Shown one piece after another: positions 3,310-29,552 of a DNA stretch of 32,000 nucleotides. Each line of letters opens with the position of its first letter. Position 1 is the stretch's first letter. Source of the DNA: Candidatus Babelota bacterium (GTDB taxonomy: Bacteria > Babelota > Babeliae > Babelales > Vermiphilaceae). The notes below the pieces were generated by a model, which worked only from the letters and a program-made list of their open reading frames with translations, did no database searches and was not told where the DNA came from. Position numbers and translations under genes: made by a program. The stretch is taken from assembly GCA_039809905.1 (NCBI GenBank), contig JBDHVY010000001.1:900001-932000 (forward strand). Direction: 5' to 3'.

Positions 3310-4191
3310 ATGCATAAAATAATAAAAAGTTTCACCATGTTGATGGTGTTAGTAGCCAATAATAGCTTTGGCTATTTTTATTATTTATGTATTAAAAAAG
3401 GTGTTAATAAAAATGGTGTGCCACACATGATTGTTCTCTTGGCGGATTACCATGATAAAACTCATAATGCAAATAAAGGTCAGCGGACCTATTTTGAATC
3501 ATTACTCAAAAGATGTAAAAAACATAAAGTTAAACTTATTGTTGAAGATTTAAGTTCGGTAAATAATGATGGTCGAATGATGTGTTGTAAGTTTGGTATT
3601 AGTTGTGCTGAAGGTGTATTGAGCAATTTAGCACATAAAGCTCGTTCATTTGGCATTACTGTTGATAACGTTGAATATCGTTATTGTCGTGTAGCTGGAA
3701 TAGGTCCCTTAATTACTAACATTCAAGTTGATCCGCATTCGGTTCGATCTTCTTGTAGTATTACTCTTGTATCTTTATATAAAGAAATTGTTAATGAAAT
3801 GGAAAAGATAAAGAAGTATAACGATGGTAAAAAATTGAATGATTATTATAAACGTTCAATAGCCTATGTTTATTCCCAGCTCAATAAAATGAAAATAGAA
3901 CAAAATAATGATACTAAAACAGTTGCTCATTATTGTGCGCAATTACGATCGAATATGTATCGTAAAAAGCTCGAGCATTTATGTATATTTGATAGTGCTC
4001 TTATCGATAGTAATGTGATGCATTCGATTATGTGTTGTGATATGCCAATTATCTTTGTTGCTGCAGGAGGATCTCATATTACGCAAGTAAATAAACTGTT
4101 AGAAAAAATGGGCTATGAATCAATTTTTGTGGTTCCTGATAATAATCAACAATCCATAGATATTACTGTTTTAGATAGATTTATTGAGTAA
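3310..4191 (+). CDS. hypothetical exported protein (possible Tiki/TraB/GumN-superfamily fold, weak)
   Basis: 293-aa ORF with SD AAGGGAG and an N-terminal hydrophobic segment (FTMLMVLVANNSFG). The motifs IVLLADYHD, LIVED and C-terminal FVAAGGSHITQVNKLLEKMGYE loosely recall the GxxH...E...GxxHL.G...L...GY pattern of TraB/GumN/Tiki proteins. This comparison is from memory only. Confidence 0.55.
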   Translation: MHKIIKSFTMLMVLVANNSFGYFYYLCIKKGVNKNGVPHMIVLLADYHDKTHNANKGQRTYFESLLKRCKKHKVKLIVEDLSSVNNDGRMMCCKFGISCAEGVLSNLAHKARSFGITVDNVEYRYCRVAGIGPLITNIQVDPHSVRSSCSITLVSLYKEIVNEMEKIKKYNDGKKLNDYYKRSIAYVYSQLNKMKIEQNNDTKTVAHYCAQLRSNMYRKKLEHLCIFDSALIDSNVMHSIMCCDMPIIFVAAGGSHITQVNKLLEKMGYESIFVVPDNNQQSIDITVLDRFIE

Positions 4192-4274
4192 GGATGCTTG
4201 CGTATAAAAAAATTGCTTCTCATTCATAATTCGTATACATTACCCTAAAAAACATTTCGTAAAAAAGGGTATGT

Positions 4275-4973
4275 ATGAAAATCAAAAATGAAGCGATTAT
4301 TGCGTCATTATTCTGTTCAATTCTCAGTTCTACAGTGACAGCAGATACTGCAACATCTGATCCGGTAGAAGTTCTTTTTACCAATATTTATAAAACAAAA
4401 TTTTGGCAGTTAGGCGAAAGTGTTTCAGGTCCTGGTTCAGAATTAAAGGTTACTGAAAAAACACGGTATGCATTGAGTGAACTACTGAAAAGATTTAGCA
4501 TTAGTTCAATTGCAGATGCGCCTTGTGGTGATTATCATTGGATGAGACACGTGAATATTGGAAATTGTACATATCTTGGCCTTGATATTGTTGATGAATT
4601 AATTCAAAAAAATAGTTCCTTATTCGGTTCTGACAAAATAAGATTCCAGCACGCGAATTTGATTGATAATGTGATAGAGAAAGTAGACCTTATCATATGT
4701 AGAGATATGCTCGCTCATTTAACTGATGAACAAATTTTTAAAGTTATTCGCAATTTTAAAGCGAGTGGGGCAAAATATCTTCTGGCTACTACTAACTATG
4801 CAGTGCAAAGCAATACATATATTGATAGAGCTGGTGATTGGCGCAAACTTAATCTTGAAGCTGCACCATTTAATTTTCCAAGACCATTGGCAATTATTGA
4901 AGAAGATGTTCCTTTCACTTGGGAACAAGGCAAGCATTTGGCATTGTGGTTTTTAGATGATATTAATGTGTAA
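4275..4973 (+). CDS. class I SAM-dependent methyltransferase with N-terminal signal peptide
   Basis: The signal-like N-terminus is MKIKNEAIIASLFCSILSSTVTA|DT. The motif I region is SIADAPCGDYHWM, followed by YLGLDIV (motif II acidic residue) and LIICRDMLAHL. SD AAAGGG lies 5 nt upstream. Confidence 0.75.
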   Translation: MKIKNEAIIASLFCSILSSTVTADTATSDPVEVLFTNIYKTKFWQLGESVSGPGSELKVTEKTRYALSELLKRFSISSIADAPCGDYHWMRHVNIGNCTYLGLDIVDELIQKNSSLFGSDKIRFQHANLIDNVIEKVDLIICRDMLAHLTDEQIFKVIRNFKASGAKYLLATTNYAVQSNTYIDRAGDWRKLNLEAAPFNFPRPLAIIEEDVPFTWEQGKHLALWFLDDINV

Positions 4974-5127: not shown

Positions 5128-8100
5128 TTAATCAAGACCAAGCTCAAGTGAATCATGAGTCCAACGATGGAATGCTTCTGCAGGTACTTCTTCTTGCTGA
5201 TGTTGCACCTTATCACCACTCAAAATAAATGCAGGCATTAAAGAAAGTGCAATCAAACGATAATTCCAGATCTTTTCAGGATAAAACGTTTTCATGATGC
5301 CAACATTACCACTGTCTGGGTTTCTGGTATAAAATCCTAATCCGTTAGATTGTAAACCAACATTTTCTGAAAAAGCTGAGACAGGTACCCGCATTCTCCT
5401 GGCTAACTGTTGAGCAATTCCATTTAATTCTGCGGCGCATTGGCAAGAAAACAAATTAATATGTTGTCCTTTCTGATATCCAGGAGCGGTTCTAATAAGG
5501 CGTGCTAATTGCGTGGCATTCAGTTCTACGGTTCCTGTAGCAATCAGTTGTAAGAGATTAGACTGGCTTAGCCCTTTGGGATGAATTGCTTGAACGTCAA
5601 CCCAAATAGTGTGTGGATTACCGTGTCCCAATACATTAAAAGGAGCAGCTTGGCTTTTATGCCATCGAGCTCGTGCAAATTCGTAATGAACACTATTGGT
5701 TAGAACAAGATCATCTTCAGCAATGGCTACCTCCGCGTTAGTCCATTTGCCCGCACGCGGATTAGGTACAAAAGGAACTCTGCCTTGCAAAGCATATCGA
5801 TATTGATGTACGCGATCTATAACTTTGTCGGTAATATTTTTTATGGTACCTTTTCCTTTTTGGTAGACAATTTTTACGCCTTTTCCAGCTATTTGAATAC
5901 CTTTCAAGATTCCGCATGCAAGAGCCATATTATAAATAACTTCACCAGGTGTTGTAACACCAGTATATAAGTCGCGTGTTGTTCCTGTGGCAAAACATGC
6001 GATACTTAGAGGGTTAGGTATCATAGCAAAAGTATCAATTGTTTTATTCAGGGCATCGACAAATGCGATGCGAATTATAGGGGTTACTTGTTCAATTAAA
6101 CGTGGTATTTTTGGATGTACAATGCGATTGTGTAAAGATCGTTTTGATTGAACCTGTTTGTTGTTGCTGTGTGCATATTCGAGTATAAGGTCTGCATAGA
6201 CATTTTGATTGAGCGATTTTTCTATTGATGTTAATACCAGATCGTGTGCAGCATTATTGGTATCAGTTTTTCTAGGACTATTTTTACGAGCTGGTTTGGT
6301 TATATGTTTTGTATTCTTCTTATGTACAGGGTTTGTTTTTTCTTGATGTATATGTAATGTTGCATATGCTTGACTTGTAGCTGCAAGCAGTGATTGATAT
6401 TCGCTGAGCGCTGCAAGTTGTCCTCGAACTGCAATATCATTATCAATAGCATTGGTTGCAGCACTAGCTGCAATAGTAGGATTTTGGCGTGTAAGAGCAG
6501 CTACTGATGCGGCGGCTATTTTAGCCAGTTTCATTCTTTCATGAACTTCGTGATCAATAGCGCGTTGAATATTTGCAGGAGTTTTTTGTATGCCTTTTTT
6601 ATTGAGGCGTGCAATAGCGTTATCAGCAATTGCTTGCGAATCAGCAATAAGCAAAGCTCCTATAGTTTCTGCAGTTACAACTCCCGTGACTCCTGAAACA
6701 AATCCTTTGCGAGATTGTTCTTGCGCAAAACCACTTAATCCGCCAACAAGCGCTTGGCCAACTTGTTTGATAAGTTCATGAGTATATGCAGCGCAAATTT
6801 CGTTGCTTGCATATGCTGCAATTGCTTTCAGCGGAATCTGTTGGATTGTTTTACCAAGCGATTTATCAAGTGGTGCGTTGGTGATTGCAGTAGTAAGTAG
6901 AGTATCTACGGTACTTTGCAATGCATGTTGTTGTACATGTTGTGAGAGTGATTTGATACCGGGTTCCATATTGATATCAAGCATGCTGCCAAGCTGCGTG
7001 CACAATCCTGCAGATGCCATGGTAAAGCATAGCGATTGCACATGAGCAGGAGATACCATCTGTTTGGCGGTGTTGATAGGATCGCCTGTTTTAAGAAAAG
7101 AAGTTGTCGCGCTGCTGTATACAGCACTAATGCCCGCATTTACGGCAGCAATTCCTGCTGCACTCAACTGCATACCAGTGGCAGCTGTTACATTCGTCAG
7201 TAATGGTTGAAGTAATTCCATACCCATGCCTTGCGTATACCAAGTGATTGCAAGTGCAATCACTACCAATGCTTCATCAGGAAAAACTGGTGATACATGA
7301 TGCCAATTGCGTTGCCACTGCTTCAGGTGATAGGTTGTTTCTACAAAAGTACCAATAATTTCAGTGCGATTTTTATCCATGATGGCAGATTCAAAAAGCA
7401 TGTGCCCATCATGTTGTGCGCGTATAATTTTTTCTACCATCAGCATTGGTGGAATCATTGTCTCATAACCAGCTTCAAAACCGATATCAGCAGAAGATAA
7501 AGGACTAGAAATGAGTGTTTGTGCAGAGCATAGCATTTCTGCTACTTTAGCAACAAATTGAATGCCTTTTTCTGTTTCATCATGCAATTCAGTTGCGTGA
7601 ATGTTTGCATTGACTTGTGCGCTTTCGCCTAAGAAACGAATACGCGGTGATTGCATGTGTGCAGCAGCTGCAAACGGAGTTTGCTTGGATGATTTTTTAC
7701 TTTCATCGGTAAACATGCCACTTTTTTCTTCAGAACTGGTAAATGTATTGGCAAGTAACAACCCTTCAATGTTGATTTGTGGAGCTTCATAGATGATTTC
7801 TTGCTGCGCAATATCTTGTTGAGCAGTTGCTTGTATAGCAACATGAGCTTTGTCATGCAAAATAGTTCCTGCATGCGTTTCGCAGGGCAATGCGCTATGC
7901 GTAAGGCTGGTCTCCACTCTGGATGATGATGAAAACAAGCCGTTTTTTTCATGACGTGTTTCAGTGAATGTTTGTAATACGAGTGGATTTTTAATAACCG
8001 AACCATGTTCTGATTGTTCTGTGACATCATGTGCTGCAGCAATGACTGTTCCGGTGCGCGTAATATTTTTATCACTGTGCACCTTTACTGGCCCTGCAGG

Positions 8101-9960
8101 AGCAATGAGTTGTTGCTGAGGCATTGCGCATTGCATTATTGTTTTTGAATTGAATGATTCACTAACCACGGTATATGATTGTGTTTGTAGATTAAGAGCG
8201 CCTGCAGTTGATTGCATGGTGATTCCATTGGGACCTGTTGCAACAATGCGGTTATTAAGATGTGTTTGATCATTATCAGTGATGCAAGAGAATTCATCAG
8301 TAGCAATATCCCCTGGCGATTGGTACGGGTTGATGTCGTTTGGTGCTAAGCAAAGCATAGTATGTTGCTGTAATTCATCGCTTGGTGTGGAAACGATTTG
8401 TGTAAGCAACATTGATGTGTCAACGTGCTGCACATCTTCAGGTGATATGATTTCTTTTTGGTTGTGCTGTTTCCATTGCAGAGCATTTTCCTGCAGCATT
8501 GCACTGATGCTTTTCTCTTGTGTTTTAAGTATTTTTCCTGCAAGCGTACTAATAAGTTGCTGTAAAAATGAATCAAAATTAATGCCACTGAGTGGATTGG
8601 AGATATTCTGCCAATCAAGCGGTATCGCTTGATTGTTTCCAAGGAGCACTCGGCTGTTGCCATCGATTCTTGTTGGTATACCAAGAGGAAATTCTGTTCT
8701 TACACTGCCATCGGCAGCTAATCGATAAATTCCCGGTTTTTGTGCTTCTTGTTGAATGTATTCAGTAACATTTACCAGCATTGGCTCAGTTGCAATTGTG
8801 GTATTGCGCCTGCGCTCTGTATTGATGAAAGATCCTGTATTGCCGGTGATGGCGACGGTGCCAGCATTCATGTTGCCGGTAATGGCAAAGTCACCCAAGT
8901 TCATAGTAATGTTTTCACCAGCTTGCGTGATACAGGATAAGATAAAAGGAGGAAGCTGATGGTCAAGTTGGCCAGCATAAGTTTTTACAATAATGTTTTG
9001 TGGTTCTTCAATATAGTGTGGTGAACTATGCAATAGAGATTTATTGTTGCATATTTTACCTCCACTACGAATTGAGCTTGCAAAATTGTAAATTTTTGTT
9101 TTTATTAAAAATTTAATCTCTTTTAAAGATTCCAGAATTGCCGGACCTGAACCAGCATATTGTGATGAAACGCCGTAACAATGCTTAGTGATGGCCTTTT
9201 CACGAATATGATCATATTCGTCAGCTTCAATGCTTATTATTCCTTGGGACGATATTTTGCCGGCAAGATTTTGAATTTTATTGTGTGCTATTATTTTACT
9301 ACCAATAGTATTTGTTACAGTACCATGATTCAGAAATATATTGCGAGCTGATCGAAGAGTAAGTATATTATCTGATGCCGCGTAAGACCCGTTACTTTGC
9401 TTAACCGCAGAAAAACGAGACATCATAGGTGTTTGGTTTCGATGCTCTTCTTTTTCAAATCGTTCAGCGCTTTGTATGTTCTTCCTGAGCCTTGCAGGTG
9501 ATCCGAATGAAGCATACAAATTGTATTGTTGTTTAATGTCTTCATCGATACCCCAGATTGAATCACCAACAGTAATATCGCCAATTGTTGATTCAATTAA
9601 TGTTGGGCCTTTGCCATACAATTTAGCGTAACGCCCATCAATTGCATCAGCAATGACTGTCAACGGTCCATGCGTTGCAGCAAGAATTCCCATTTCTTCA
9701 TTATTTTTTCCTAAGGTCAAAAGACCGTTTACTTTGAGTGAAAGGGTAGGTGTTTTTAACGCATAATGCAGAGTGAACGGACCATTTACTGTTAAATCAA
9801 GATGATTGATGTTTGAAAAACCATAATTTTGTTCGAAAGAAAAAGTTGAGGGCCTCAGCAGGTTAATAGCATAGCATGCAATAGTAAATTTTCCTGGTGT
9901 GTCTGGTAGTTTTTCTAAAAGTGGAAATAGATCAGATTGTTGATAAATGACGGGATTCAT
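5128..9960 (-). CDS. giant (1610 aa) multidomain toxin/adhesin-like protein
   Basis: This is a single uninterrupted ORF. The N-terminal ~420 aa is rich in short beta-strand-like repeats (e.g. ITGNMNAGTVAITGNTGSF). The central Ala/Gly/Thr-rich hydrophobic block (DNA ~6600..7290, e.g. ALVVIALAITWYTQGMG...SAAGIAAVNAGISAV...ALVGGLSGF) recalls the DUF637/FHA-2-type regions of FhaB/CdiA-like exoproteins. A basic linker follows (KKNTKHITKPARKNSPRKTD). The C-terminal domain carries VLGHGNPH (H1446) and INLFSCQCAAE (C1506/C1508). There is no N-terminal signal peptide and no obvious SD. Confidence 0.85.
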   Translation of the reverse strand: MNPVIYQQSDLFPLLEKLPDTPGKFTIACYAINLLRPSTFSFEQNYGFSNINHLDLTVNGPFTLHYALKTPTLSLKVNGLLTLGKNNEEMGILAATHGPLTVIADAIDGRYAKLYGKGPTLIESTIGDITVGDSIWGIDEDIKQQYNLYASFGSPARLRKNIQSAERFEKEEHRNQTPMMSRFSAVKQSNGSYAASDNILTLRSARNIFLNHGTVTNTIGSKIIAHNKIQNLAGKISSQGIISIEADEYDHIREKAITKHCYGVSSQYAGSGPAILESLKEIKFLIKTKIYNFASSIRSGGKICNNKSLLHSSPHYIEEPQNIIVKTYAGQLDHQLPPFILSCITQAGENITMNLGDFAITGNMNAGTVAITGNTGSFINTERRRNTTIATEPMLVNVTEYIQQEAQKPGIYRLAADGSVRTEFPLGIPTRIDGNSRVLLGNNQAIPLDWQNISNPLSGINFDSFLQQLISTLAGKILKTQEKSISAMLQENALQWKQHNQKEIISPEDVQHVDTSMLLTQIVSTPSDELQQHTMLCLAPNDINPYQSPGDIATDEFSCITDNDQTHLNNRIVATGPNGITMQSTAGALNLQTQSYTVVSESFNSKTIMQCAMPQQQLIAPAGPVKVHSDKNITRTGTVIAAAHDVTEQSEHGSVIKNPLVLQTFTETRHEKNGLFSSSSRVETSLTHSALPCETHAGTILHDKAHVAIQATAQQDIAQQEIIYEAPQINIEGLLLANTFTSSEEKSGMFTDESKKSSKQTPFAAAAHMQSPRIRFLGESAQVNANIHATELHDETEKGIQFVAKVAEMLCSAQTLISSPLSSADIGFEAGYETMIPPMLMVEKIIRAQHDGHMLFESAIMDKNRTEIIGTFVETTYHLKQWQRNWHHVSPVFPDEALVVIALAITWYTQGMGMELLQPLLTNVTAATGMQLSAAGIAAVNAGISAVYSSATTSFLKTGDPINTAKQMVSPAHVQSLCFTMASAGLCTQLGSMLDINMEPGIKSLSQHVQQHALQSTVDTLLTTAITNAPLDKSLGKTIQQIPLKAIAAYASNEICAAYTHELIKQVGQALVGGLSGFAQEQSRKGFVSGVTGVVTAETIGALLIADSQAIADNAIARLNKKGIQKTPANIQRAIDHEVHERMKLAKIAAASVAALTRQNPTIAASAATNAIDNDIAVRGQLAALSEYQSLLAATSQAYATLHIHQEKTNPVHKKNTKHITKPARKNSPRKTDTNNAAHDLVLTSIEKSLNQNVYADLILEYAHSNNKQVQSKRSLHNRIVHPKIPRLIEQVTPIIRIAFVDALNKTIDTFAMIPNPLSIACFATGTTRDLYTGVTTPGEVIYNMALACGILKGIQIAGKGVKIVYQKGKGTIKNITDKVIDRVHQYRYALQGRVPFVPNPRAGKWTNAEVAIAEDDLVLTNSVHYEFARARWHKSQAAPFNVLGHGNPHTIWVDVQAIHPKGLSQSNLLQLIATGTVELNATQLARLIRTAPGYQKGQHINLFSCQCAAELNGIAQQLARRMRVPVSAFSENVGLQSNGLGFYTRNPDSGNVGIMKTFYPEKIWNYRLIALSLMPAFILSGDKVQHQQEEVPAEAFHRWTHDSLELGLD

Positions 9961-12841: not shown

Positions 12842-13789
12842 ATGATACTATGTGATAAAAAATTAGTGGTAGTAATGCTACTTTTGGCAATTTTTAATCG
12901 GGCGGTGGCGATGAAGCGATCGAGTGATGGACATGACTTAAATAATCCAAATAAGCGACTAAAAATGAGTCGTATTAGTACAAAAGATTCTGACATTTCA
13001 AGTTTTAAATCAGTTATTTCCAGTAGTTGGCCATCGCAAGTAACAAATACGTTTGCTAACAGTTCAGAGTGTGCAGTGTCGATTTATCAAGAGGAACAAC
13101 CTGTTGATTTGAGGGCGTCGCTTGAGGAGCAAGCACGAGTTAAGGCATTTGCTTTATCATATTACATGGCAGCAGACAGTAAGCTTGCTGATGCAATGGC
13201 AGCTTGCGATTTTGAGCAAACAAACCGGTATACACAGAAGCTATGTACATTAAAATCTTATCCTTTTGGCATAGTAGCTGGTATTGTAGCAAGTGATTTT
13301 TCAAGTCAACAAAAAATTAAATTGTTTGATAAAATTCAAAACATAATCAGTAGACAATTGCAAATAAAGCTGTTTAATCAAGTGAGTGGTGAGGGTTTTA
13401 AGCCTTTGGAATTGGCAGTTCAATATAATGATCATTCAATGGTTTATAACCTTATCAAGAGAGGAGCTGATCCAAAAGGCTTGGATCAGAGAGGAGAGCC
13501 TATTTTTTTACAGATAAAAAGAGTTGAAATAGGAACATTATTTTTAACCGCAGGTGTTCCCATAGATATTAAAAATAATAAGGGAGAAACAATATTATTT
13601 AATAATGCAACAATACTCCCTGAAGAAATAAAAATAGCGACATGGTTTATTGCAAAGCGTGGCAATATAAAACACAAAAATATTTATAATCAGAATGCTT
13701 TTCAGAAGCAGAATATACAAGGAAATGCAAATCCTGATTTGGAAGTTCCAGAAGAAATTTTGGAAAAACGAAGAATTTTTACACGTTAA
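12842..13789 (+). CDS. ankyrin-repeat protein with N-terminal hydrophobic/signal-like segment
   Basis: The C-terminal half carries ANK-like units: GFKPLELAVQYNDHSMVYNLIKRGADPKGLDQRGEPIF and LFLTAGVPIDIKNNKGETILF. The N-terminus is KKLVVVMLLLAIFNRAVA. Confidence 0.75.
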   Translation: MILCDKKLVVVMLLLAIFNRAVAMKRSSDGHDLNNPNKRLKMSRISTKDSDISSFKSVISSSWPSQVTNTFANSSECAVSIYQEEQPVDLRASLEEQARVKAFALSYYMAADSKLADAMAACDFEQTNRYTQKLCTLKSYPFGIVAGIVASDFSSQQKIKLFDKIQNIISRQLQIKLFNQVSGEGFKPLELAVQYNDHSMVYNLIKRGADPKGLDQRGEPIFLQIKRVEIGTLFLTAGVPIDIKNNKGETILFNNATILPEEIKIATWFIAKRGNIKHKNIYNQNAFQKQNIQGNANPDLEVPEEILEKRRIFTR

Positions 13790-13800
13790 TAATTTTTATA

Positions 13801-13834
13801 AAAAAAGCGCTCACTTAAAATGAGCGCTTTTTTT
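13801..13834. terminator. bidirectional rho-independent terminator
   Basis: A6, then stem AAGCGCTCA, loop CTTAAAA, stem TGAGCGCTT, then T-run. It lies between convergent stops at 13789 (+) and 13846 (-). Confidence 0.8.
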
Positions 13835-13845
13835 GTGTTCCATTC

Positions 13846-14811
13846 TTATCTAAATAAAATCATCAATAACGATAATATAACGGTATAAAGAACCATGGTT
13901 TCAATGAGTGTTTGTGCCAATATGCTTGTGCGAGAAAGAATGTTATATGAATCGGGATTCTCACCAATTTGCGTGCATGCTGCGGCAGCTGTTCTTCCTG
14001 AGCTAATGCCAGCACCAAGAGTACCAAAACCAGTACAGAAAGCTGCAGATAAAAATATAATGCCATCAATGCTATTATCAATTGGTGTGCGTGAAACAAC
14101 AAAAAGAAGAGTGATAGCAATTATGAGGCAGAAAATAATAGGAGTTTCAATAAGCGCTTCACTGATAAAAGTAAATGAAAGGAGCTTATCATATGCTTTT
14201 ATGTTTTTGCCTAAATTTTTTACTGCTGCTTTTGCAAAAGAGCTGAGACCAATTGCTGGCCCAATACTACCAAGACCAACACATAAACCACTTGCAATAA
14301 GACGGAGGCTATCGCTCATATTTATTGCGGAACTTGCTTGACCTTGAATAAAAAGAGACACAAGGAAAGCTGAAATCATTGGTGTTTGAATAAGAACTTG
14401 TGCTAAAAGCATAAATGATAAAATGCGGTGTGCAAAAAAAGGTTGCCGTGCAACTGCATCACATGCAGCTTGAGCAGGAAATGTTGAAGCAAGACCAATA
14501 GTGAATCCACTTATTCCCATTGCTGCAATGATGCCAAGTTCAGAATAGTAAGAAAATTCATTAACTGATTCTACATTCGTATACATGAGCAAAAAAATTG
14601 AGATAAGAAATCCCAATATTGCTACCGTTTCTACTAATGTCATACCAATAAATGCAACACGCATAATAGCATCTTTTGCTTGCGGTTGCCTATTCATAGC
14701 ACCAAGAGCACTCCAGCTGATAAGGCCTTCACCAAGACCAACAGAAATTGAACTTATGGCAATTGATAGAGTGATTGCACCATAGTGTAAATATTCATAT
14801 GAGAAGTTCAT
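13846..14811 (-). CDS. atpE: F-type ATP synthase Fo subunit c, four fused hairpins (8 TM helices) in one 321-aa polypeptide
   Basis: Four consecutive c-subunit-like helix-loop-helix units of 80-82 aa. Unit 1 is GLGEGL...AMNRQPQAKD...MTLVETVAILGFLISIFLL. Unit 2 is AVARQPF...AQVLIQTPMISAFLV. Unit 3 is NLGKNIKA...SEALIETPIIFCLI. Unit 4 is QIGENPDS...AQTLIETMVLYTVIL. It lies directly downstream of an F-type a subunit. Confidence 0.85.
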   Translation of the reverse strand: MNFSYEYLHYGAITLSIAISSISVGLGEGLISWSALGAMNRQPQAKDAIMRVAFIGMTLVETVAILGFLISIFLLMYTNVESVNEFSYYSELGIIAAMGISGFTIGLASTFPAQAACDAVARQPFFAHRILSFMLLAQVLIQTPMISAFLVSLFIQGQASSAINMSDSLRLIASGLCVGLGSIGPAIGLSSFAKAAVKNLGKNIKAYDKLLSFTFISEALIETPIIFCLIIAITLLFVVSRTPIDNSIDGIIFLSAAFCTGFGTLGAGISSGRTAAAACTQIGENPDSYNILSRTSILAQTLIETMVLYTVILSLLMILFR

Positions 14812-14829: not shown

Positions 14830-15561
14830 CTAATGTCCGCCTTCTTGTGTTCCTATCGAAAGATAGGTGAGTGTCAGCATTGCAAAAACAAATGCTTGCA
14901 GAAGTCCTTCAAAAAGAGTGAAAAATGTAACAATCAAAAAATTAGCACCAGTCAAAAGACCAACTGATTCAAGAATAATTGATCCACTGATGGTGCTGAA
15001 ATAAAGTTTTGTGATAATTGCACCACCAAATATGTTTCCGAATAAACGAAATGATATTGAAACAATCGATGATAGCTTTCCTATAACATTAAGGGGGAGC
15101 ATGACAAAAAATGGTTGAAAGAAGTCTTTTGCATAAGGAATAAAGCCTCGTGATTGTATAGCAATTGCTTGTACATATACAAAAGAAATAATGCCTAAGG
15201 CTAAAGCTGTATTAATATCTTTTGTTGGCTCATCTAGCCATGGAATTAAGGGCGCTGTGTTACAAAGGCCGATAAAAATAAAAAGAGATGCTGCAAAAAC
15301 ACAGTGATTGTAAGCAAACATGCCGAGTGATTGTTTTGTAAGATCAATAAAAAATGAAACAAACTCAATCAACATAAAGCGACCAAGCTTGGTATGATGC
15401 ATGATATATTTAACGCACGTAAGAAATAGTGCCAAAATAATCATGATAACCCATGTGTTCACTACTATTTCACTATTAACCATGAACAAGAGATTATCTT
15501 CATAACCAAAAAATGAACCTAAATACCATTGTGGCGTTTCAATTAATTCAGCACCGTTCAT
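14830..15561 (-). CDS. atpB: F-type ATP synthase Fo subunit a
   Basis: Contains the hallmark SISFRLFGNIFGG (the essential Arg of the RLxxN motif) and about 5-6 TM helices. The ORF extends to ATG 15588. ATG 15561 is preferred because AAAAGGG lies 8 nt upstream of it. Confidence 0.85.
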   Translation of the reverse strand: MNGAELIETPQWYLGSFFGYEDNLLFMVNSEIVVNTWVIMIILALFLTCVKYIMHHTKLGRFMLIEFVSFFIDLTKQSLGMFAYNHCVFAASLFIFIGLCNTAPLIPWLDEPTKDINTALALGIISFVYVQAIAIQSRGFIPYAKDFFQPFFVMLPLNVIGKLSSIVSISFRLFGNIFGGAIITKLYFSTISGSIILESVGLLTGANFLIVTFFTLFEGLLQAFVFAMLTLTYLSIGTQEGGH

Positions 15562-15639
15562 GTGGCGCGCCCTTTTGTTATAGCCCATGCTCTACTGCTC
15601 ATTCTGAGCTTTCTATGGGAGACTTTATGAAACAATTTT

Positions 15640-15903
15640 TTATATGGGTTTTATCATTTTTAGCATAATAAGTAATGTTATTAAAAATGATATTACTACC
15701 AGTATAAGATTGATTGAAGATGAGTGCAATATATATACCATGCTTAATGCAATAAGAGTAAGTCGTGCAAAAGAAAGCATAATTGATTTGGCCAGATGTT
15801 GAGCGAATGATGAACTATGTAAAGATAAGACTCTTCTTTGTTGGGTAACAAAGAAGAGTCCATATAATATTGCGAGTAATATACCAAGAAGAATAGAGAA
15901 CAT
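15640..15903 (-). CDS. small 3-TM membrane protein in the AtpI/AtpZ position upstream of atpB
   Basis: 87 aa and strongly hydrophobic. It is located where atpI-like genes sit in atp operons and starts 12 nt after the folC-like stop. The call is by position and size only, with no diagnostic motif. Confidence 0.5.
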   Translation of the reverse strand: MFSILLGILLAILYGLFFVTQQRRVLSLHSSSFAQHLAKSIMLSFARLTLIALSMVYILHSSSINLILVVISFLITLLIMLKMIKPI

Positions 15904-20259: not shown

Positions 20260-21033
20260 ATGAAACGAGTGATATCATTGTTGTTGCTTACCAATATTGC
20301 TTATGGAGACTATCCAGAAATTAGTGCACAAAGATTACCTGATAACAACTCTTCTCTAAAAGAATACCAAAGTGGATCGTATTGTTTTCCACGTTTTGAT
20401 TGTCCGCGTGGTAAACGAGGTAAGCATGGAAAACGAGGCAAGACTGGAGCTACCGGTGCTACTGGTGCGACTGGTCCTATTGCGCCATTTAATTTAAGAG
20501 ATGAATTATTCATTAATGCTTTAATGATGACGAATACGATTGCAGGAACACCGGATACATTTTTTACCGATGTTTATGGAACACCAACAATTCTTTCAGC
20601 ATGGGGATTAACAAGTCCTTTTGATGTAAACAATCCTATCGGTACGCAGTTTGTTATTCCGAGTACACTTGATACAACACAGCCAGTTGTGCTTGTTATT
20701 CATTGTTTCAATGTGAGATTAGAAGCTTTTGGTGAAGTGAGATTCCAAGTTCAGATTGATTACAAAGGAGATGGCCAAGAATTCGGCGCCAATCCTCCAG
20801 CAAACGGATATTCTGAAACATTATTCACGGGAAATATTCCGGTTATTGATCCAGTAAACCCGCCGAATGCCAGGTATTTTATGGTAACAGTTCCTTTAAA
20901 TGGTGCTTTAATGGCAGGAAAAACATGGTCTGAACTTGTGCTTTCTCGTGTTGCCACAACAGATGATAATGATTATCAAGGACCTGTTTTCCTTACTGCT
21001 TTTTCTATTCAATATACAAAAACAATGAGTTGA
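20260..21033 (+). CDS. secreted protein with short basic collagen-like stalk (8 G-X-Y) and beta-rich C-terminal domain
   Basis: The signal peptide is MKRVISLLLLTNIAYG. The collagen-like run [27 protein letters not shown] is encoded at DNA 20410..20481. A strong SD (AAAGGAG) lies 8 nt upstream. Confidence 0.8.
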   Translation: MKRVISLLLLTNIAYGDYPEISAQRLPDNNSSLKEYQSGSYCFPRFDCPRGKRGKHGKRGKTGATGATGATGPIAPFNLRDELFINALMMTNTIAGTPDTFFTDVYGTPTILSAWGLTSPFDVNNPIGTQFVIPSTLDTTQPVVLVIHCFNVRLEAFGEVRFQVQIDYKGDGQEFGANPPANGYSETLFTGNIPVIDPVNPPNARYFMVTVPLNGALMAGKTWSELVLSRVATTDDNDYQGPVFLTAFSIQYTKTMS

Positions 21034-21957: not shown

Positions 21958-23280
21958 TTATTTTTCCGATCTAAAAATATGTTCTGATATGGTAGTTTCT
22001 GCTGCAACTTCATGAGAATTGTTTTCATCAGTCCATACTACAAAAGGTGTATGATATATCTTGAGGATTGAATTGCCTATTATTTCACTGCTTTGACTTT
22101 CTCCTAAACAAGATAATTTTTTTTTGTTGTTATTATAAAATTTTGTTTTTGTTCCCTGTATAAGAACTATTTTATTGCTTAATTTTAGAGAGGCGACTGT
22201 CATATTTGGAAATATTTCTGTTCCTACTATGTTTCTATTAAGGTGTGATAAATTGAACAGTATTATTTTTGATTGATCTATTGAATCAGGATTGTTATAA
22301 AGAACTGCCAGATAAGATCCGGTTTCATTTGTAGTAAACGCATCAATCATGCCTTGATAATCAAAGCTGTTTTTCAATGTATAAGATCCAATTAATCTTT
22401 GATTTTTTGAATAAATATCAAAAGAAAGTTTATCTGTTTGGTAAACATACATTTCTTTTTGAGGAATAAATAAAAATTTAGTTGTACCTCTATCCTCGAG
22501 TGGCCATGGCATGCTTTTAGTCTCTACGAGAGCATTATCACCTACTTTCACAAATAAGGCATTTGTAGCATTCTGCAATGATGCGATAGGGCCACTAACA
22601 GTTATGATAGAATAATATTCCGGTAGCAAAAAAGCCATCCGTTTTTTATTTTTATCTATAGGATGCTTTACAAATAATTTATTGGTAGTATAGAGTATGT
22701 TTTCACTATCAGAAGAAAAAAACCATTGCCCTGTTGTGGGTTCAATAGTCTCAAATTGAGTTTTACTGAGTGTATTTAAGGTAACATTATATTGCAAAAG
22801 AATATTGTGTATCGTGTTGTTATCGTCTTTTACAAAAGACTGTATCATATGTCTTTCGTTGTTAGCGATTTGCAAACCACATAATAATATACCTTGCTGA
22901 TCATTACTAATCAAAGGAATTGATTTATCCTCTTTAAGGGAGTATAGCAAAGGAACTCTTTTGATGGAGTCGTTAGCAGTTTTATGAGTAAGAATAATAA
23001 AGTTATCTCGAGGACTAAATTGGCCGTGGTTATAGCCGGTAAAAGTTTGAACAATTTTTCTTTGATCAGTATTCCATACATGAATTTGGGATTCGTTGCT
23101 TTGATGTGAAACGTTTTCTAAAAAATATTTTCTATTATTGCTTGCTTTAATCAGCGCTATTTGTTCACGATTAGACCGAGTCTCTTTGATGATGTGAGTG
23201 CCAATTTTTACAGGGTTTTGTGAAGCAAAGACATCAAAAAATGAACAAAACACAATGATTGGTAGTAAAATGCGGTTCAT
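21958..23280 (-). CDS. secreted repeat protein, paralog family member (440 aa; beta-propeller-like by composition)
   Basis: The signal peptide is MNRILLPIIVFCSFFDVFA. The shared blocks YFLENVSHQSNESQIHVWNTDQRKIVQTFTGYNHGQFSPRDNFIIL and IGSYTLKN...LIQGTKTKFY...LSCLGESQS align with the two paralogs. SD TAGGA lies 7 nt upstream, and the gene starts 24 nt after the upstream paralog. Confidence 0.8.
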   Translation of the reverse strand: MNRILLPIIVFCSFFDVFASQNPVKIGTHIIKETRSNREQIALIKASNNRKYFLENVSHQSNESQIHVWNTDQRKIVQTFTGYNHGQFSPRDNFIILTHKTANDSIKRVPLLYSLKEDKSIPLISNDQQGILLCGLQIANNERHMIQSFVKDDNNTIHNILLQYNVTLNTLSKTQFETIEPTTGQWFFSSDSENILYTTNKLFVKHPIDKNKKRMAFLLPEYYSIITVSGPIASLQNATNALFVKVGDNALVETKSMPWPLEDRGTTKFLFIPQKEMYVYQTDKLSFDIYSKNQRLIGSYTLKNSFDYQGMIDAFTTNETGSYLAVLYNNPDSIDQSKIILFNLSHLNRNIVGTEIFPNMTVASLKLSNKIVLIQGTKTKFYNNNKKKLSCLGESQSSEIIGNSILKIYHTPFVVWTDENNSHEVAAETTISEHIFRSEK

Positions 23281-23304: not shown

Positions 23305-24768
23305 CTAGCTCGCTATTGTTTTTAAATTTTTAGACAATTCAAGAAGAGCTTTTTCATCAATAGTTGATAATATGATTTTTGTTTTTGTAGGAATTTCTCC
23401 ATAGCCACCTAATGCATGGTTGTATCCAAAAAAAGGCGTTTGATTTATGTGTAAGATTGAAGGTGAATTTGAATCTGCTATTGCACTTTGGCATTCGCCC
23501 AAATCAGTAATTTTATTGCCTTGTGTATCAAAAATATATGATTTTCTTCCTTGAATAAGAAGAAAATCATTGTTGATGAACTGTATAGTATTTATCTTTT
23601 GATTAAAATCTTTACGTATCGCAGTCATCTTTGTATTAATCGATGATAAATCAAAAAATATGATACTTGATCGAGTTCGTGCTTCAGAGTAATCATAATG
23701 AGCAATAAGACCACTAGATTTTTGGTTTGTAATCAAATTTTTAAGTATTGCACCAATTGCAGGAATTTTATCATTTTTTAATGTATATGATCCTATTTTA
23801 TTATAACGATTATCCAGCATACTAAATGAATCATTCGTATATTGGTGAGCAATGATTTGTTTCCAATGTATTGGCAAAATGTTGATTTTACTTGAATCAT
23901 ATATATCCGTTATTATAGTTCTTAAGGGAACTATGTCATAAGGACTTGTCATTTCCAATAGCTCAATTTCCTTATTGGATTGTAACGTTATAAGAGATTT
24001 ATTGACGTACATGTTTGTATATTTTTTGGTAAGAGGATGGCTTAGTAGAATATTGTAAGGAAGCTTTTGTTTTATTAATGATTTACCATCTTTTGATATG
24101 TAAAGAATATGTTGATCGGCACCGAGGTCTTTTGAACCAGAACAAAAAGCCCAAACATCACTCATATTATTACTTCCTTGCGGTATCTCATGGAGAGTAT
24201 CAAGATGATGACTATAATCTAAAACGAGGGTAGTATTTTCATAATTTTCTTTGACAAAACTATATGCAATGAATTGACCATTTGAACTGGTTCCAAGTTT
24301 CATATTCGCTTTTATCAGAGTATCATTACATAAAGGTATTTCTCGGTTATGCGTGAGAGAATATAAAAATGCAGGAAGATAATCACGGTCAAGACGTGTT
24401 TTTGTGTAAAAAATCACATAGCTATTACGTGGATCGAATTGCCAGTGATTTGCATAGAATTGAAATGTCTTAATAATTTTCTTATCTGGTGAATGCCATA
24501 CATTAATTTGTGACTGATTAAGAGTTGTTGAAACATTCTCTATAAAATATTTTCCATTGGGACTGTATAATGCCTGTACACCAAAAGTTGTATTATCACT
24601 AGTTTTTTTAATCTGTTCTTGCGTGATACATCCTTGCAATAACTTTTTAAGACATATTTTTTGTAAATCCCTAGCGGGTTTTTGGCAAGAATTTTGAGCT
24701 GGTTCATCCATAGAAAATGTAACGAAAGATATACTCAACGCAAGAGCGCTGAGGAAAAGATATTTCAT
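23305..24768 (-). CDS. secreted repeat protein, paralog family member (487 aa)
   Basis: The signal peptide is MKYLFLSALALSISFVTFS. The shared blocks are YFIENVSTTLNQSQINVWHSPDKKIIKTFQFYANHWQFDPRNSYVIF and IGSYTLKN...LIQGRKSYIFDTQGNKITDLGECQS. SD AAAGGAAAG is present. Confidence 0.8.
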   Translation of the reverse strand: MKYLFLSALALSISFVTFSMDEPAQNSCQKPARDLQKICLKKLLQGCITQEQIKKTSDNTTFGVQALYSPNGKYFIENVSTTLNQSQINVWHSPDKKIIKTFQFYANHWQFDPRNSYVIFYTKTRLDRDYLPAFLYSLTHNREIPLCNDTLIKANMKLGTSSNGQFIAYSFVKENYENTTLVLDYSHHLDTLHEIPQGSNNMSDVWAFCSGSKDLGADQHILYISKDGKSLIKQKLPYNILLSHPLTKKYTNMYVNKSLITLQSNKEIELLEMTSPYDIVPLRTIITDIYDSSKINILPIHWKQIIAHQYTNDSFSMLDNRYNKIGSYTLKNDKIPAIGAILKNLITNQKSSGLIAHYDYSEARTRSSIIFFDLSSINTKMTAIRKDFNQKINTIQFINNDFLLIQGRKSYIFDTQGNKITDLGECQSAIADSNSPSILHINQTPFFGYNHALGGYGEIPTKTKIILSTIDEKALLELSKNLKTIAS

Positions 24769-24913: not shown

Positions 24914-26455
<1,542 letters not shown>

Positions 26456-28025: not shown

Positions 28026-29552
28026 CTAAAATGTCACATTCAGGCCTGCCATAATAGTGGAACTGCGGTAGGCATTTCGTTGTGAAAAGGGGATTTGCCA
28101 CAATAGGCCAAGGTTGAAATTGGGTGAAAAATCGTAATTGAGGGCGATATTTCCCAATTTTACTTTAAAGCTTGATTGGCATTCAAGGACACCTGGTACA
28201 AATGCAGGGTCTGCTACTACAAGATCAATATGATCTGATTGGTGATCAAGAACATACCACTCAAAATGCATAGAAAGACGATCAAGGAAATGATAAGCAG
28301 CAAGGCGAGCGCAAAAGTACCAGTTTTCTCCGGGATGAATTAATACATCAGTTGAGAAAGGAAAGAGGTTGTTCTGAAATTTGTTAGTAGGGACTGGGTA
28401 ATTACAATACTCTCTTTTGAAAAAGTGAGTAAAGCCGACTTCTCCGCCTATTTCTATAGTCTCTATGAAATCAAGGTTGATTCCAGCAGTCATACCAAAG
28501 CTCTTATGGCCATTGTTTCCAAATGGAGCTGCAAAGAAGTTTCTTCCATCATCTTTTTTGACCGGTGAAATGCTTCCGGAAATTTGGAAATAAGGGATTG
28601 CTAAAAAGCGTGCCCATGCACTTTCTGCTTCTTCATTTACGGGAAAAAAGTCTCGCCAGAAGAGATTAAAACGAAGGTCCTCGAGTGATGTTTCTATAAA
28701 ATCGTTACAAAAGCCAATCTTGAGTTGATCAGTTATGACTCCAATTCGATCCATAAGGAAATCATTTACATTATCTTTATTAATACCAGGAGTTCCCTCA
28801 TCGGTTTCGTTTTGAGGCACAAATGTTGCAGCATCAGTTAAATTGAGAGTTTCTTCGTGTACTTGTCGAATGGTGCTAAATCCACCTTGTATGCGTAGTC
28901 CAAACCCGCCCCACAGCAATCCGCTTGTTTCTATTCGCAATCCGCGCTTTCTGTATTTAATGGGAAAGGAGAAAAAGCCGTATCTTTCTTGAGGGTCTAT
29001 ATTGGCTTCATTATTAAGGCCTAGTCGTTCCTGAGTTCCCACAGGATCTATGGGAAATAGTGCATCGAGAGCGGTTTGTAAAATCGGAACGAGAGTTTGT
29101 CCTTGAGGATACAGGGTGTTGGTATTCAGGGCGCCATTATTATAAAGTAGCGCAAGCATGTCTGTTCTGCCGGTAAGATCGCCAAGAGGCGCATCTACCC
29201 GTGTTGGACAAGAATCTGGATTAGGAATGGGACTGGCAGCGCATTGAGAACCTTTGATGGTTTTTCCTCGATCAGCATTTTGCGCAAAAGGAGAAATAGA
29301 AATATTTATGTGGTCTCTTTTTTTATCTGCCCATTCATAATCCCATCCATTTAATGCATCAAATTTGTAGAGTAGTTGTTCACGCGTAAGAAGCAATGCA
29401 TCATCAAGATTAAGTGTTGTGAACATAGGAATGGGGTCATTTTTTGCAAGACTTGTTAGATCAGCATGAAGAAATGTATGAAGCATGCTGAGCATGGAGA
29501 CAATTGATAATAAGAGAAAACCAGATATTTTTTTTTGTTTATCGCGAAGCAT
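28026..29552 (-). CDS. outer-membrane beta-barrel protein (porin/OMP-like)
   Basis: The signal peptide is MLRDKQKKISGFLLLSIVSMLSMLHTFLHA. The sequence has alternating amphipathic strands rich in G/F/Y/N and a C-terminal beta-signal ending ...IMAGLNVTF (terminal Phe). SD AAAGGAA is present. Confidence 0.7.
   Translation of the reverse strand: MLRDKQKKISGFLLLSIVSMLSMLHTFLHADLTSLAKNDPIPMFTTLNLDDALLLTREQLLYKFDALNGWDYEWADKKRDHINISISPFAQNADRGKTIKGSQCAASPIPNPDSCPTRVDAPLGDLTGRTDMLALLYNNGALNTNTLYPQGQTLVPILQTALDALFPIDPVGTQERLGLNNEANIDPQERYGFFSFPIKYRKRGLRIETSGLLWGGFGLRIQGGFSTIRQVHEETLNLTDAATFVPQNETDEGTPGINKDNVNDFLMDRIGVITDQLKIGFCNDFIETSLEDLRFNLFWRDFFPVNEEAESAWARFLAIPYFQISGSISPVKKDDGRNFFAAPFGNNGHKSFGMTAGINLDFIETIEIGGEVGFTHFFKREYCNYPVPTNKFQNNLFPFSTDVLIHPGENWYFCARLAAYHFLDRLSMHFEWYVLDHQSDHIDLVVADPAFVPGVLECQSSFKVKLGNIALNYDFSPNFNLGLLWQIPFSQRNAYRSSTIMAGLNVTF

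Follow-up and report, generated by a model that had tools for sequence, protein, structure and literature searches.

The ion-carrying rotor of F-type ATP synthases is a ring of c subunits, and the number of ion sites on this ring sets the ion/ATP ratio, a basic gear of biological energy conversion. F-type and N-type rings hold 8-17 hairpins, and in the familiar single-hairpin c subunits (E. coli, Ilyobacter tartaricus, chloroplast) each chain is 70-90 amino acids long with a carboxylate in every hairpin. In the V- and A-type proteolipids (E. hirae NtpK, eukaryotic V-ATPase c and the archaeal subunits) hairpins have been multiplied and carboxylates partly lost, which lowers the number of ions moved per turn without shrinking the ring (PMC9171764). 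Archaeal c subunits have 1, 2, 3 or 13 hairpins, and the F-type exception is the hybrid Na+ rotor of Acetobacterium woodii, in which one 'V-type-like' c1 subunit stands among nine single-hairpin c2/c3 subunits from the same operon; this enzyme works with a silent Gln hairpin in its c1 (PMC9171764). Engineered c2, c5 and c10 fusions of the Bacillus PS3 subunit, with short periplasmic linkers, assemble and rotate (PMC8809890), and the same paper cites the finding that a single E56Q hairpin in the single-chain c10 abolished ATP synthesis (Mitome 2004). Here we describe a gene, c4, that encodes four F-type c hairpins in one chain of 321 amino acids. It lies at 13846..14811 on the minus strand of a 32,000-nucleotide stretch, hereafter the window, from a Candidatus Babelota bacterium (assembly GCA_039809905.1, contig JBDHVY010000001.1, positions 900,001 to 932,000).

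The c4 open reading frame (ORF) opens with an ATG and runs through 321 codons with no internal stop to a TAA at 13846-13848. A Pfam search with PF00137 (ATP-synt_C) matched four separate, non-overlapping stretches of the protein (E 2.7e-33), and a hairpin hidden Markov model (HMM) built from the c4 family placed the domains at residues 7-77, 89-155, 168-237 and 250-319. An AlphaFold2 model of the monomer, run on a 33-sequence alignment, consists of eight long helices forming four hairpins, with a mean predicted local distance difference test score (pLDDT) of 90.5 and a predicted template modelling score (pTM) of 0.85; confidence drops only at the short linkers between hairpins, around residues 71-90 and 241-250. 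The usual F-type c subunit has one hairpin in some 70-90 residues, and c4 has four. PF00137, the NCBIfam model PRK13468 and the AlphaFold model all identify the protein as a helix-loop-helix member of the F-type subunit c family. The original prediction, made from the letters of this DNA, had proposed just such a fused 321-residue protein, expected four non-overlapping PF00137 matches and looked to a structure model of the monomer, and all of this was borne out.

Each of the four units aligns with single-hairpin c subunits over its full length, and the units are clearly distinct from one another. Unit 1 (residues 1-78, 14578..14811, minus strand as for the other three) has the loop R41-Q42-P43, the carrier E61-T62 (E61 codon at 14629-14631) and a second acidic or amide residue, E28. 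Unit 2 (residues 79-162, 14326..14577) keeps a canonical loop, R122-Q123-P124, with Q142 (caa, 14386-14388) and hence no carboxylate at its carrier position. The loop of unit 3 (residues 163-243, 14083..14325) is degenerate, K202-N203-I204, and its carrier reads E222-T223-P224 (E222 gaa, 14146-14148). In unit 4 (residues 244-321, 13849..14082) the loop is E284-N285-P286, the carrier E304-T305 (E304 gaa, 13900-13902), and Y309 stands five residues past the carrier. Read directly in the sequence, the loop residues R41 (AMNRQPQ), R122 (VARQPF), K202 (LGKNIK) and E284 (IGENPD), the spacing of exactly 20 residues from each of them to E61, Q142, E222 and E304, the place of E28 13 residues ahead of R41 and the coordinates of the E61 codon are all as the original prediction gave them. 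The four carrier positions align with D61 of E. coli and E65 of I. tartaricus, and E28 with Q32 of the latter. All four units thus share the carrier position with the single-hairpin F-type subunits, and units 1 and 2 share the RQP loop as well, whereas the carboxylate in the middle of the C-terminal helix is present only in units 1, 3 and 4. In a unit-to-unit profile comparison units 3 and 4 are closest to each other (E 2e-24) and unit 1 is the most divergent.

This pattern is constant among close homologues. Residue conservation was counted in 120 listed homologues (59-100% identity) from the 843 that were found, and E61, Q142, E222 and E304 are each present in 120/120, so that the predicted E/Q/E/E arrangement, three carboxylates kept and a Gln in unit 2, is invariant in this set. 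Loop residues are well kept too: Q42 in 120/120 and R41 in 118/120 for unit 1, Q123 and P124 in 120/120 for unit 2, and N203 in 120/120 for unit 3. The R-Q-P motif is near-invariant in units 1 and 2, with KNI in unit 3 and ENP in unit 4 in its place. Thr follows the carrier position directly in all four units (116-120 of the 120), Y309 is invariant, and position 28 is E in 70 and Q in 49 of the sequences.

By sequence, the closest solved relatives are F-type. Every top match of c4 in the PDB belongs to the F-type c family, and the matches include the c1 and c2 subunits of A. woodii and the chloroplast, Bacillus, Fusobacterium and Ilyobacter subunits, with unit 3 giving the best match to a solved F-type c subunit (E 1.7e-9). 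Among the profiles, PRK13468 (F0F1 subunit C) passes its cutoff of 116 with 126 bits, and the V-type K models, with cutoffs of 101-188, reach at most 60 bits. The best fold match is likewise A. woodii c1 (4bem_J, E 1.5e-4, template modelling (TM) score 0.77 normalised to the target). Next come E. hirae NtpK (2bl2_A, TM score 0.83 with the same normalisation) and eukaryotic V-ATPase c. Each of these top fold matches covers only half of the c4 model, and the PDB fold search returned no solved chain with four hairpins. The partner gene immediately upstream encodes an F-type a subunit of 252 amino acids (14830..15588, minus strand; PF00119, E 9.4e-34). The sequence and profile matches together with this PF00119 partner therefore place c4 in the F-type lineage, as had been proposed from the sequence. 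A V/A-type proteolipid was rejected on the same two grounds, the F-type partner and V-type K scores far under those of the F-type c models. The resemblance to the V/A-type proteolipids, with fewer carboxylates than hairpins (three against four), is functional only; they belong to another enzyme class, and a four-hairpin form is absent from the archaeal list of 1, 2, 3 and 13.

The nearest parallel is A. woodii c1, which also belongs to an F-type enzyme, also fuses hairpins and also has a Gln at the carrier position of hairpin 2 (AVAQTTG in 4bem chain J), like Q142. It has two hairpins and one active site, whereas c4 has four hairpins and three carboxylate-bearing, presumably active, sites. The single-hairpin c genes of the A. 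woodii hybrid rotor lie in the same operon, whereas none is found near c4 in the window or in related loci, and the c4 ring is presumably homo-oligomeric. The fused PS3 rings are artificial and lose ATP synthesis with a single E56Q hairpin, whereas c4 by nature has a conserved Gln in one hairpin of four.

The fusion is widespread. A search of 5.8 billion proteins gave the 843 homologues, and almost all of the 120 listed are 317-322 amino acids long. Those with a named source are labelled ATP synthase F0 subunit C of 'Candidatus Babeliales', in agreement with an earlier guess of a Dependentiae lineage. When 1.84 billion cluster representatives were scanned exhaustively with HMMER, 486 of them matched at E <= 1e-3, and 158 still did so at E <= 1e-30. 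Of the 150 listed, nearly all are about 320 amino acids long, with identities down to about 30%. An identical c4 protein occurs in two independent assemblies. We collected more than 90 c4 loci from species-representative genomes and metagenomes, and the order a-c4 is constant across them, while the four-domain ORF is uninterrupted in 79 of 80 metagenomic loci. In deeper branches genes for a glycosyltransferase, an acylphosphatase and a BamA-like protein come after a-c4. In much of the phylum Dependentiae (TM6, 'Babelota') the fusion is therefore an ancient trait that has become fixed, which answers the question, raised with the prediction, of whether it is lineage-wide.

The ratio of nonsynonymous to synonymous change (dN/dS) was computed pairwise for six genes. 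The values for units 1-4 are 0.105, 0.127, 0.071 and 0.096, and are approximate since synonymous sites are near saturation. These ratios indicate that all four units are under purifying selection and that unit 2 is not decaying. The wider family was represented by 128 full-length members of 50%-identity clusters, whose carrier patterns are mainly EQED (66), EQEE (22) and EEEE (18). At the unit-4 carrier position 77 of them have Asp and 46 have Glu, and a few have L, M, V, T or S at the unit-2 position. A neighbour-joining tree of these 128, rooted at its midpoint, separates a 26-member clade, with a unit-2 Glu in 23 and the full E/E/E/E pattern in 18, from a 102-member clade that includes the window gene and has a unit-2 carboxylate in 0/102. 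The E/E/E/E pattern was also read directly in the sequences of two Babeliales metagenome-assembled genomes (L008 and L009, 34-36% identity). Because one clade keeps E/E/E/E and the other has no unit-2 carboxylate at all, the simplest history is that four active hairpins were fused first and that the unit-2 carboxylate was then lost once, the loss being kept ever since.

The a gene ends close to c4, which starts 18 nucleotides downstream of it, and the a subunit is intact. Its stator Arg, R181, lies in the motif SFRLFGN (codon 15046-15048), and E227 and Q231 lie in helix 5; the three align with R210, H245 and Q252 of E. coli, and a subunits from 10 loci share the same R, E and Q. The PF00119 match also upholds the claim that an F-type a gene adjoins c4 upstream. 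An intrinsic terminator at 13799..13828 (minus strand), AGCGCTCA-TTTTAAG-TGAGCGCT followed by seven T, begins 18 nucleotides past the c4 stop; it was recognised by direct reading, having been omitted under the criteria of the automatic terminator scan. The next gene, an ORF with weak Pfam matches to ankyrin repeats (12842..13789, plus strand), converges on this terminator. The terminator and the convergent gene therefore delimit an operon of a small ORF, a, c4 and the terminator. This content also speaks against an N-type ATPase (the alternate F1Fo, atpDCQRBEFAG), whose operon includes atpQ and atpR; it was rejected in addition because the alt_F1F0 c and a models stay under their cutoffs, TIGR03322 with 100 bits against 131 and TIGR03306 with 81 against 302.

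The remaining ATP synthase genes are found neither here nor nearby. Pfam searches of the operon ORFs and ten other large ORFs gave no b, delta or F1 gene in the 32-kb window, and no F1 gene emerged from Walker-A scans of six-frame translations, which covered the window, 8 related loci and another 80; the gene tables of four more c4 contexts show none either. Other c-like ORFs are absent from the window and from 12 related loci, and among the 80 further loci there are only two: L028 has a partial copy, and in L091 the extra ORF is the tail of an interrupted gene. In L028 a 159-residue ORF (4014-4493), near-identical to units 3-4 of the c4 on the same contig, follows that gene 2 kb downstream, with an ankyrin-repeat gene in between, and looks like a partial segmental duplication. 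In L091 (366-1328) a stop codon splits c4 into a four-domain and a one-domain piece, a pseudogene or a sequencing error.

Taken together, we consider it probable that c4 is the sole c-type protomer of an F1Fo enzyme that runs as an ATP-driven pump, with a rotor of 4n hairpins of which three-quarters are active. Four ancestral c hairpins would have been joined head to tail through short periplasmic linkers, and a ring of two, three or four such chains would turn against the ordinary F-type a subunit and its stator Arg R181. Its 8, 12 or 16 hairpins would lie inside the 8-17 range of known F-type and N-type rings. We infer a homo-oligomeric ring because, L028 and L091 excepted, no other c-like ORF is found in the window or beside a-c4 in the loci collected. 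E61, E222 and E304 would each bind an ion, and the hairpin with Q142 would pass the a-subunit channel empty. The unit-2 site is probably silent, since it has the same Gln as hairpin 2 of A. woodii c1 and since the wider clade tolerates Leu, Met and Val there. The near-invariant RQP loops of units 1 and 2 suggest that the ring still docks to the F1 central stalk; in E. coli, genetics has shown that the residues of this loop contact the gamma and epsilon subunits.

Such a ring would carry 6, 9 or 12 ions per turn, that is per 3 ATP, and so 2, 3 or 4 per ATP, three-quarters of the usual number for a ring of the same size. If the homo-oligomeric ring is accepted, its most likely form would be a trimer of 12 hairpins with 9 carboxylates, which would move exactly 3 ions per ATP and match F1 in its threefold symmetry. 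The maximal ion-motive force equals the free energy of ATP hydrolysis divided by nF, and at 50 kJ/mol this would come to about 130 mV for n=4 and about 173 mV for n=3, so that with a lower ion/ATP ratio the same free energy could sustain a larger force. A similar gear-lowering logic has been proposed for V-type c subunits (PMC9171764). It would suit an enzyme that runs backwards as an ATP-driven pump keeping the membrane energised. This direction is suggested by the biology of the Dependentiae, which have no respiratory chain and no tricarboxylic acid cycle and import host ATP through ATP/ADP translocases; ATP synthase is a core function of all TM6 genomes studied and has been proposed to hydrolyse ATP in order to maintain the membrane potential (PMC4776705, PMC6561590).

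Several points weigh against this proposal. In about 90 loci the F1, b and delta genes are absent within 10 kb of a-c4, and the completeness of the F1Fo complex is taken from statements in the literature alone. As E56Q abolished synthesis in the PS3 c10 ring, a ring with Gln in a quarter of its hairpins would need adaptations. A single-hairpin c gene elsewhere in the genome may exist and would give a hybrid ring.

The last of these points leads to the alternative that survives best, although we regard it as unlikely: that c4 co-assembles with a single-hairpin c subunit encoded elsewhere, in which case the ring would not be restricted to 4n hairpins and its silent fraction would be smaller. This arrangement is known from A. 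woodii, where c1 is combined with c2/c3 (PMC9171764), and the five-hairpin c genes of other bacteria described below each precede a single-hairpin c gene. Against it stand the lack of a second c-like ORF in the window and in the Dependentiae loci, apart from the L028 partial copy and the L091 tail, and the terminator that closes the operon directly after c4.

We think it still less probable that a and c4 form an Fo without F1 that is no rotary ATPase and acts, by itself or with a different partner, as for instance a gated ion conductance. Such a role would fit with the small operon having its own terminator and with F1 genes never lying next to a-c4 in about 90 loci. Split atp operons are, however, common in bacteria, the gamma- and epsilon-contacting RQP loops of units 1 and 2 are near-invariant, and the stator Arg and half-channel residues of the a subunit are conserved. 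ATP synthase moreover belongs to the core of all TM6 genomes studied (PMC4776705, PMC6561590).

It seems very improbable that all four sites are active, with Q142, the Thr that follows it and backbone ligands together binding an ion such as Na+, so that the ratio is unchanged and the fusion serves assembly or stability only. The strict conservation of the Gln without drift among the 120 listed homologues, and the Thr after all four carrier positions, would be in keeping with this. However, unit 2 of the wider clade tolerates Leu, Met and Val, which are unable to ligate an ion, and to our knowledge all known rotor ion sites require a carboxylate; a single E-to-Q change also inactivated the engineered Bacillus ring, as cited in PMC8809890. 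An artefact, in which tandem c genes were merged by mis-assembly or missed stops, is ruled out, since we found nothing in its favour beyond the one interrupted copy (L091) in 80 loci, and since the same protein in independent assemblies, hundreds of homologues of about 320 amino acids from NCBI, JGI, ENA and Logan, an intact ORF in 79/80 loci, the distinctness of the units and purifying selection over the full length all contradict it.

The nature of the transported ion is less clear-cut. The literature assumes H+ as the coupling ion, whereas the original prediction saw a Na+-type signature. Part of this holds: Thr follows every carrier, and unit 1 has in E28 a polar residue equivalent to Q32. 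Part does not, as the residues at +2 are V, P, P and M instead of Ser or Thr, and units 2-4 have S109, L189 and S271 at the Q32-equivalent position. Since both the +2 and the Q32-equivalent residues differ between units, the three active sites would not be equivalent, and the Na+ motif is incomplete. The Thr at +1 and the E/Q at position 28 of unit 1 therefore amount to a partial resemblance to Na+-binding c subunits.

The underlying principle, hairpin multiplication with loss of sites, is a known one, previously seen in V-type and A-type subunits and in the single c1 copy of A. woodii. What is apparently new is that it occurs in an F-type context and in a four-hairpin, three-site protomer which seems to have no other c subunit beside it, and that it has become fixed throughout a phylum of energy parasites. 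A search of open-access papers and preprints found no description of a four-hairpin F-type c subunit or of a fused c subunit of Dependentiae/TM6, consistent with the original prediction, whose author was aware of none. A broader claim, to which we give slightly less than an even chance, is that the rotor is a homo-oligomer of four-hairpin chains with an obligatory silent position at every fourth hairpin, that bacteria have thereby invented the V-type 'gear reduction' a second time and fixed it in a phylum of ATP-importing parasites, and that it is one of a wider, unrecognised set of multi-hairpin F-type rotors of uncultivated bacteria (4, 5, 6 and 13 hairpins). If true, c4 would be an experiment of nature on how an F-type a subunit gets past an empty site, to be set against the failure of the engineered E56Q ring. 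It would likewise tie rotor gearing to an energy-parasite lifestyle in which ATP is imported and the enzyme is a pump and not a synthase. The living series E/E/E/E, E/Q/E/E and E/Q/E/D would then record the order of events, and the limitation of ring size to multiples of four would make the stoichiometry predictable.

Other, undescribed fused F-type c genes came to light alongside c4. Three canonical F-type operons from outside the Dependentiae (L014 8688-17324, L017 4461-12630 and L018 6919-10596) encode five-hairpin c subunits of 406, 434 and 411 amino acids, each directly before a single-hairpin c gene (80-89 amino acids). Their gene order is atpI, a, c5, c, b, b', two of them also have delta, alpha, gamma and beta, and the operons are complete or nearly so. 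The five-hairpin carriers read E-Q-Q-Q-Q in P0216 and P0211 and E-E-E-E-E in P0255. These operons resemble the A. woodii hybrid rotor but with five hairpins in the fused chain.

A further F-type operon, with recoded UGA (L010 10001-15242; L011 4167-9408), has a c gene of 13 hairpins and 968 amino acids before the a gene and a six-hairpin c gene of 448 amino acids after it; b, alpha, gamma, beta and epsilon come next. The operon can be read only with UGA as a sense codon: under translation table 11 the 968-residue gene has 95 in-frame UGA codons, and in 10 of its 13 hairpins a UGA falls on a column that is otherwise Gly, which suggests genetic code 25 (Gracilibacteria or Absconditabacteria). 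All 19 carriers of the two genes are Glu, in an ES motif, and the 13-hairpin gene may encode a single-chain F-type ring. With the five-, six- and 13-hairpin finds, c4 takes its place in a broader range of fused F-type rotors that is still unexplored.

The small ORF that heads the c4 operon (15640..15903, minus strand) lies upstream of the a gene and encodes 87 amino acids. It is hydrophobic, with stretches at about residues 1-19, about 41-59 and from about 53 to the C-terminus, and has zero matches in Pfam and in NCBIfam. It is 40-71% identical to ORFs at the same position in loci L003-L007. As it is conserved upstream of the a gene in relatives, it occupies the atpI slot of an F-type operon, and it may be a lineage-specific c-ring assembly factor.

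The rest of the window holds several large ORFs. One of 1610 amino acids (5128-9960, minus strand) has no Pfam match, and gene calling on the identical contig L001 gives it too; three others of 440-508 amino acids (21958-23280, 23305-24768 and 28026-29552) have zero Pfam matches. The ankyrin-repeat genes near c4, here and in L028, are consistent with a repertoire of effectors directed at eukaryotes. Two genes (24914-26416, minus strand, and 20260-21033, plus strand) encode proteins with collagen triple-helix repeats, unusual surface proteins for an intracellular bacterium, and one of them has a BclA C-terminal domain of the type found in the Bacillus exosporium.

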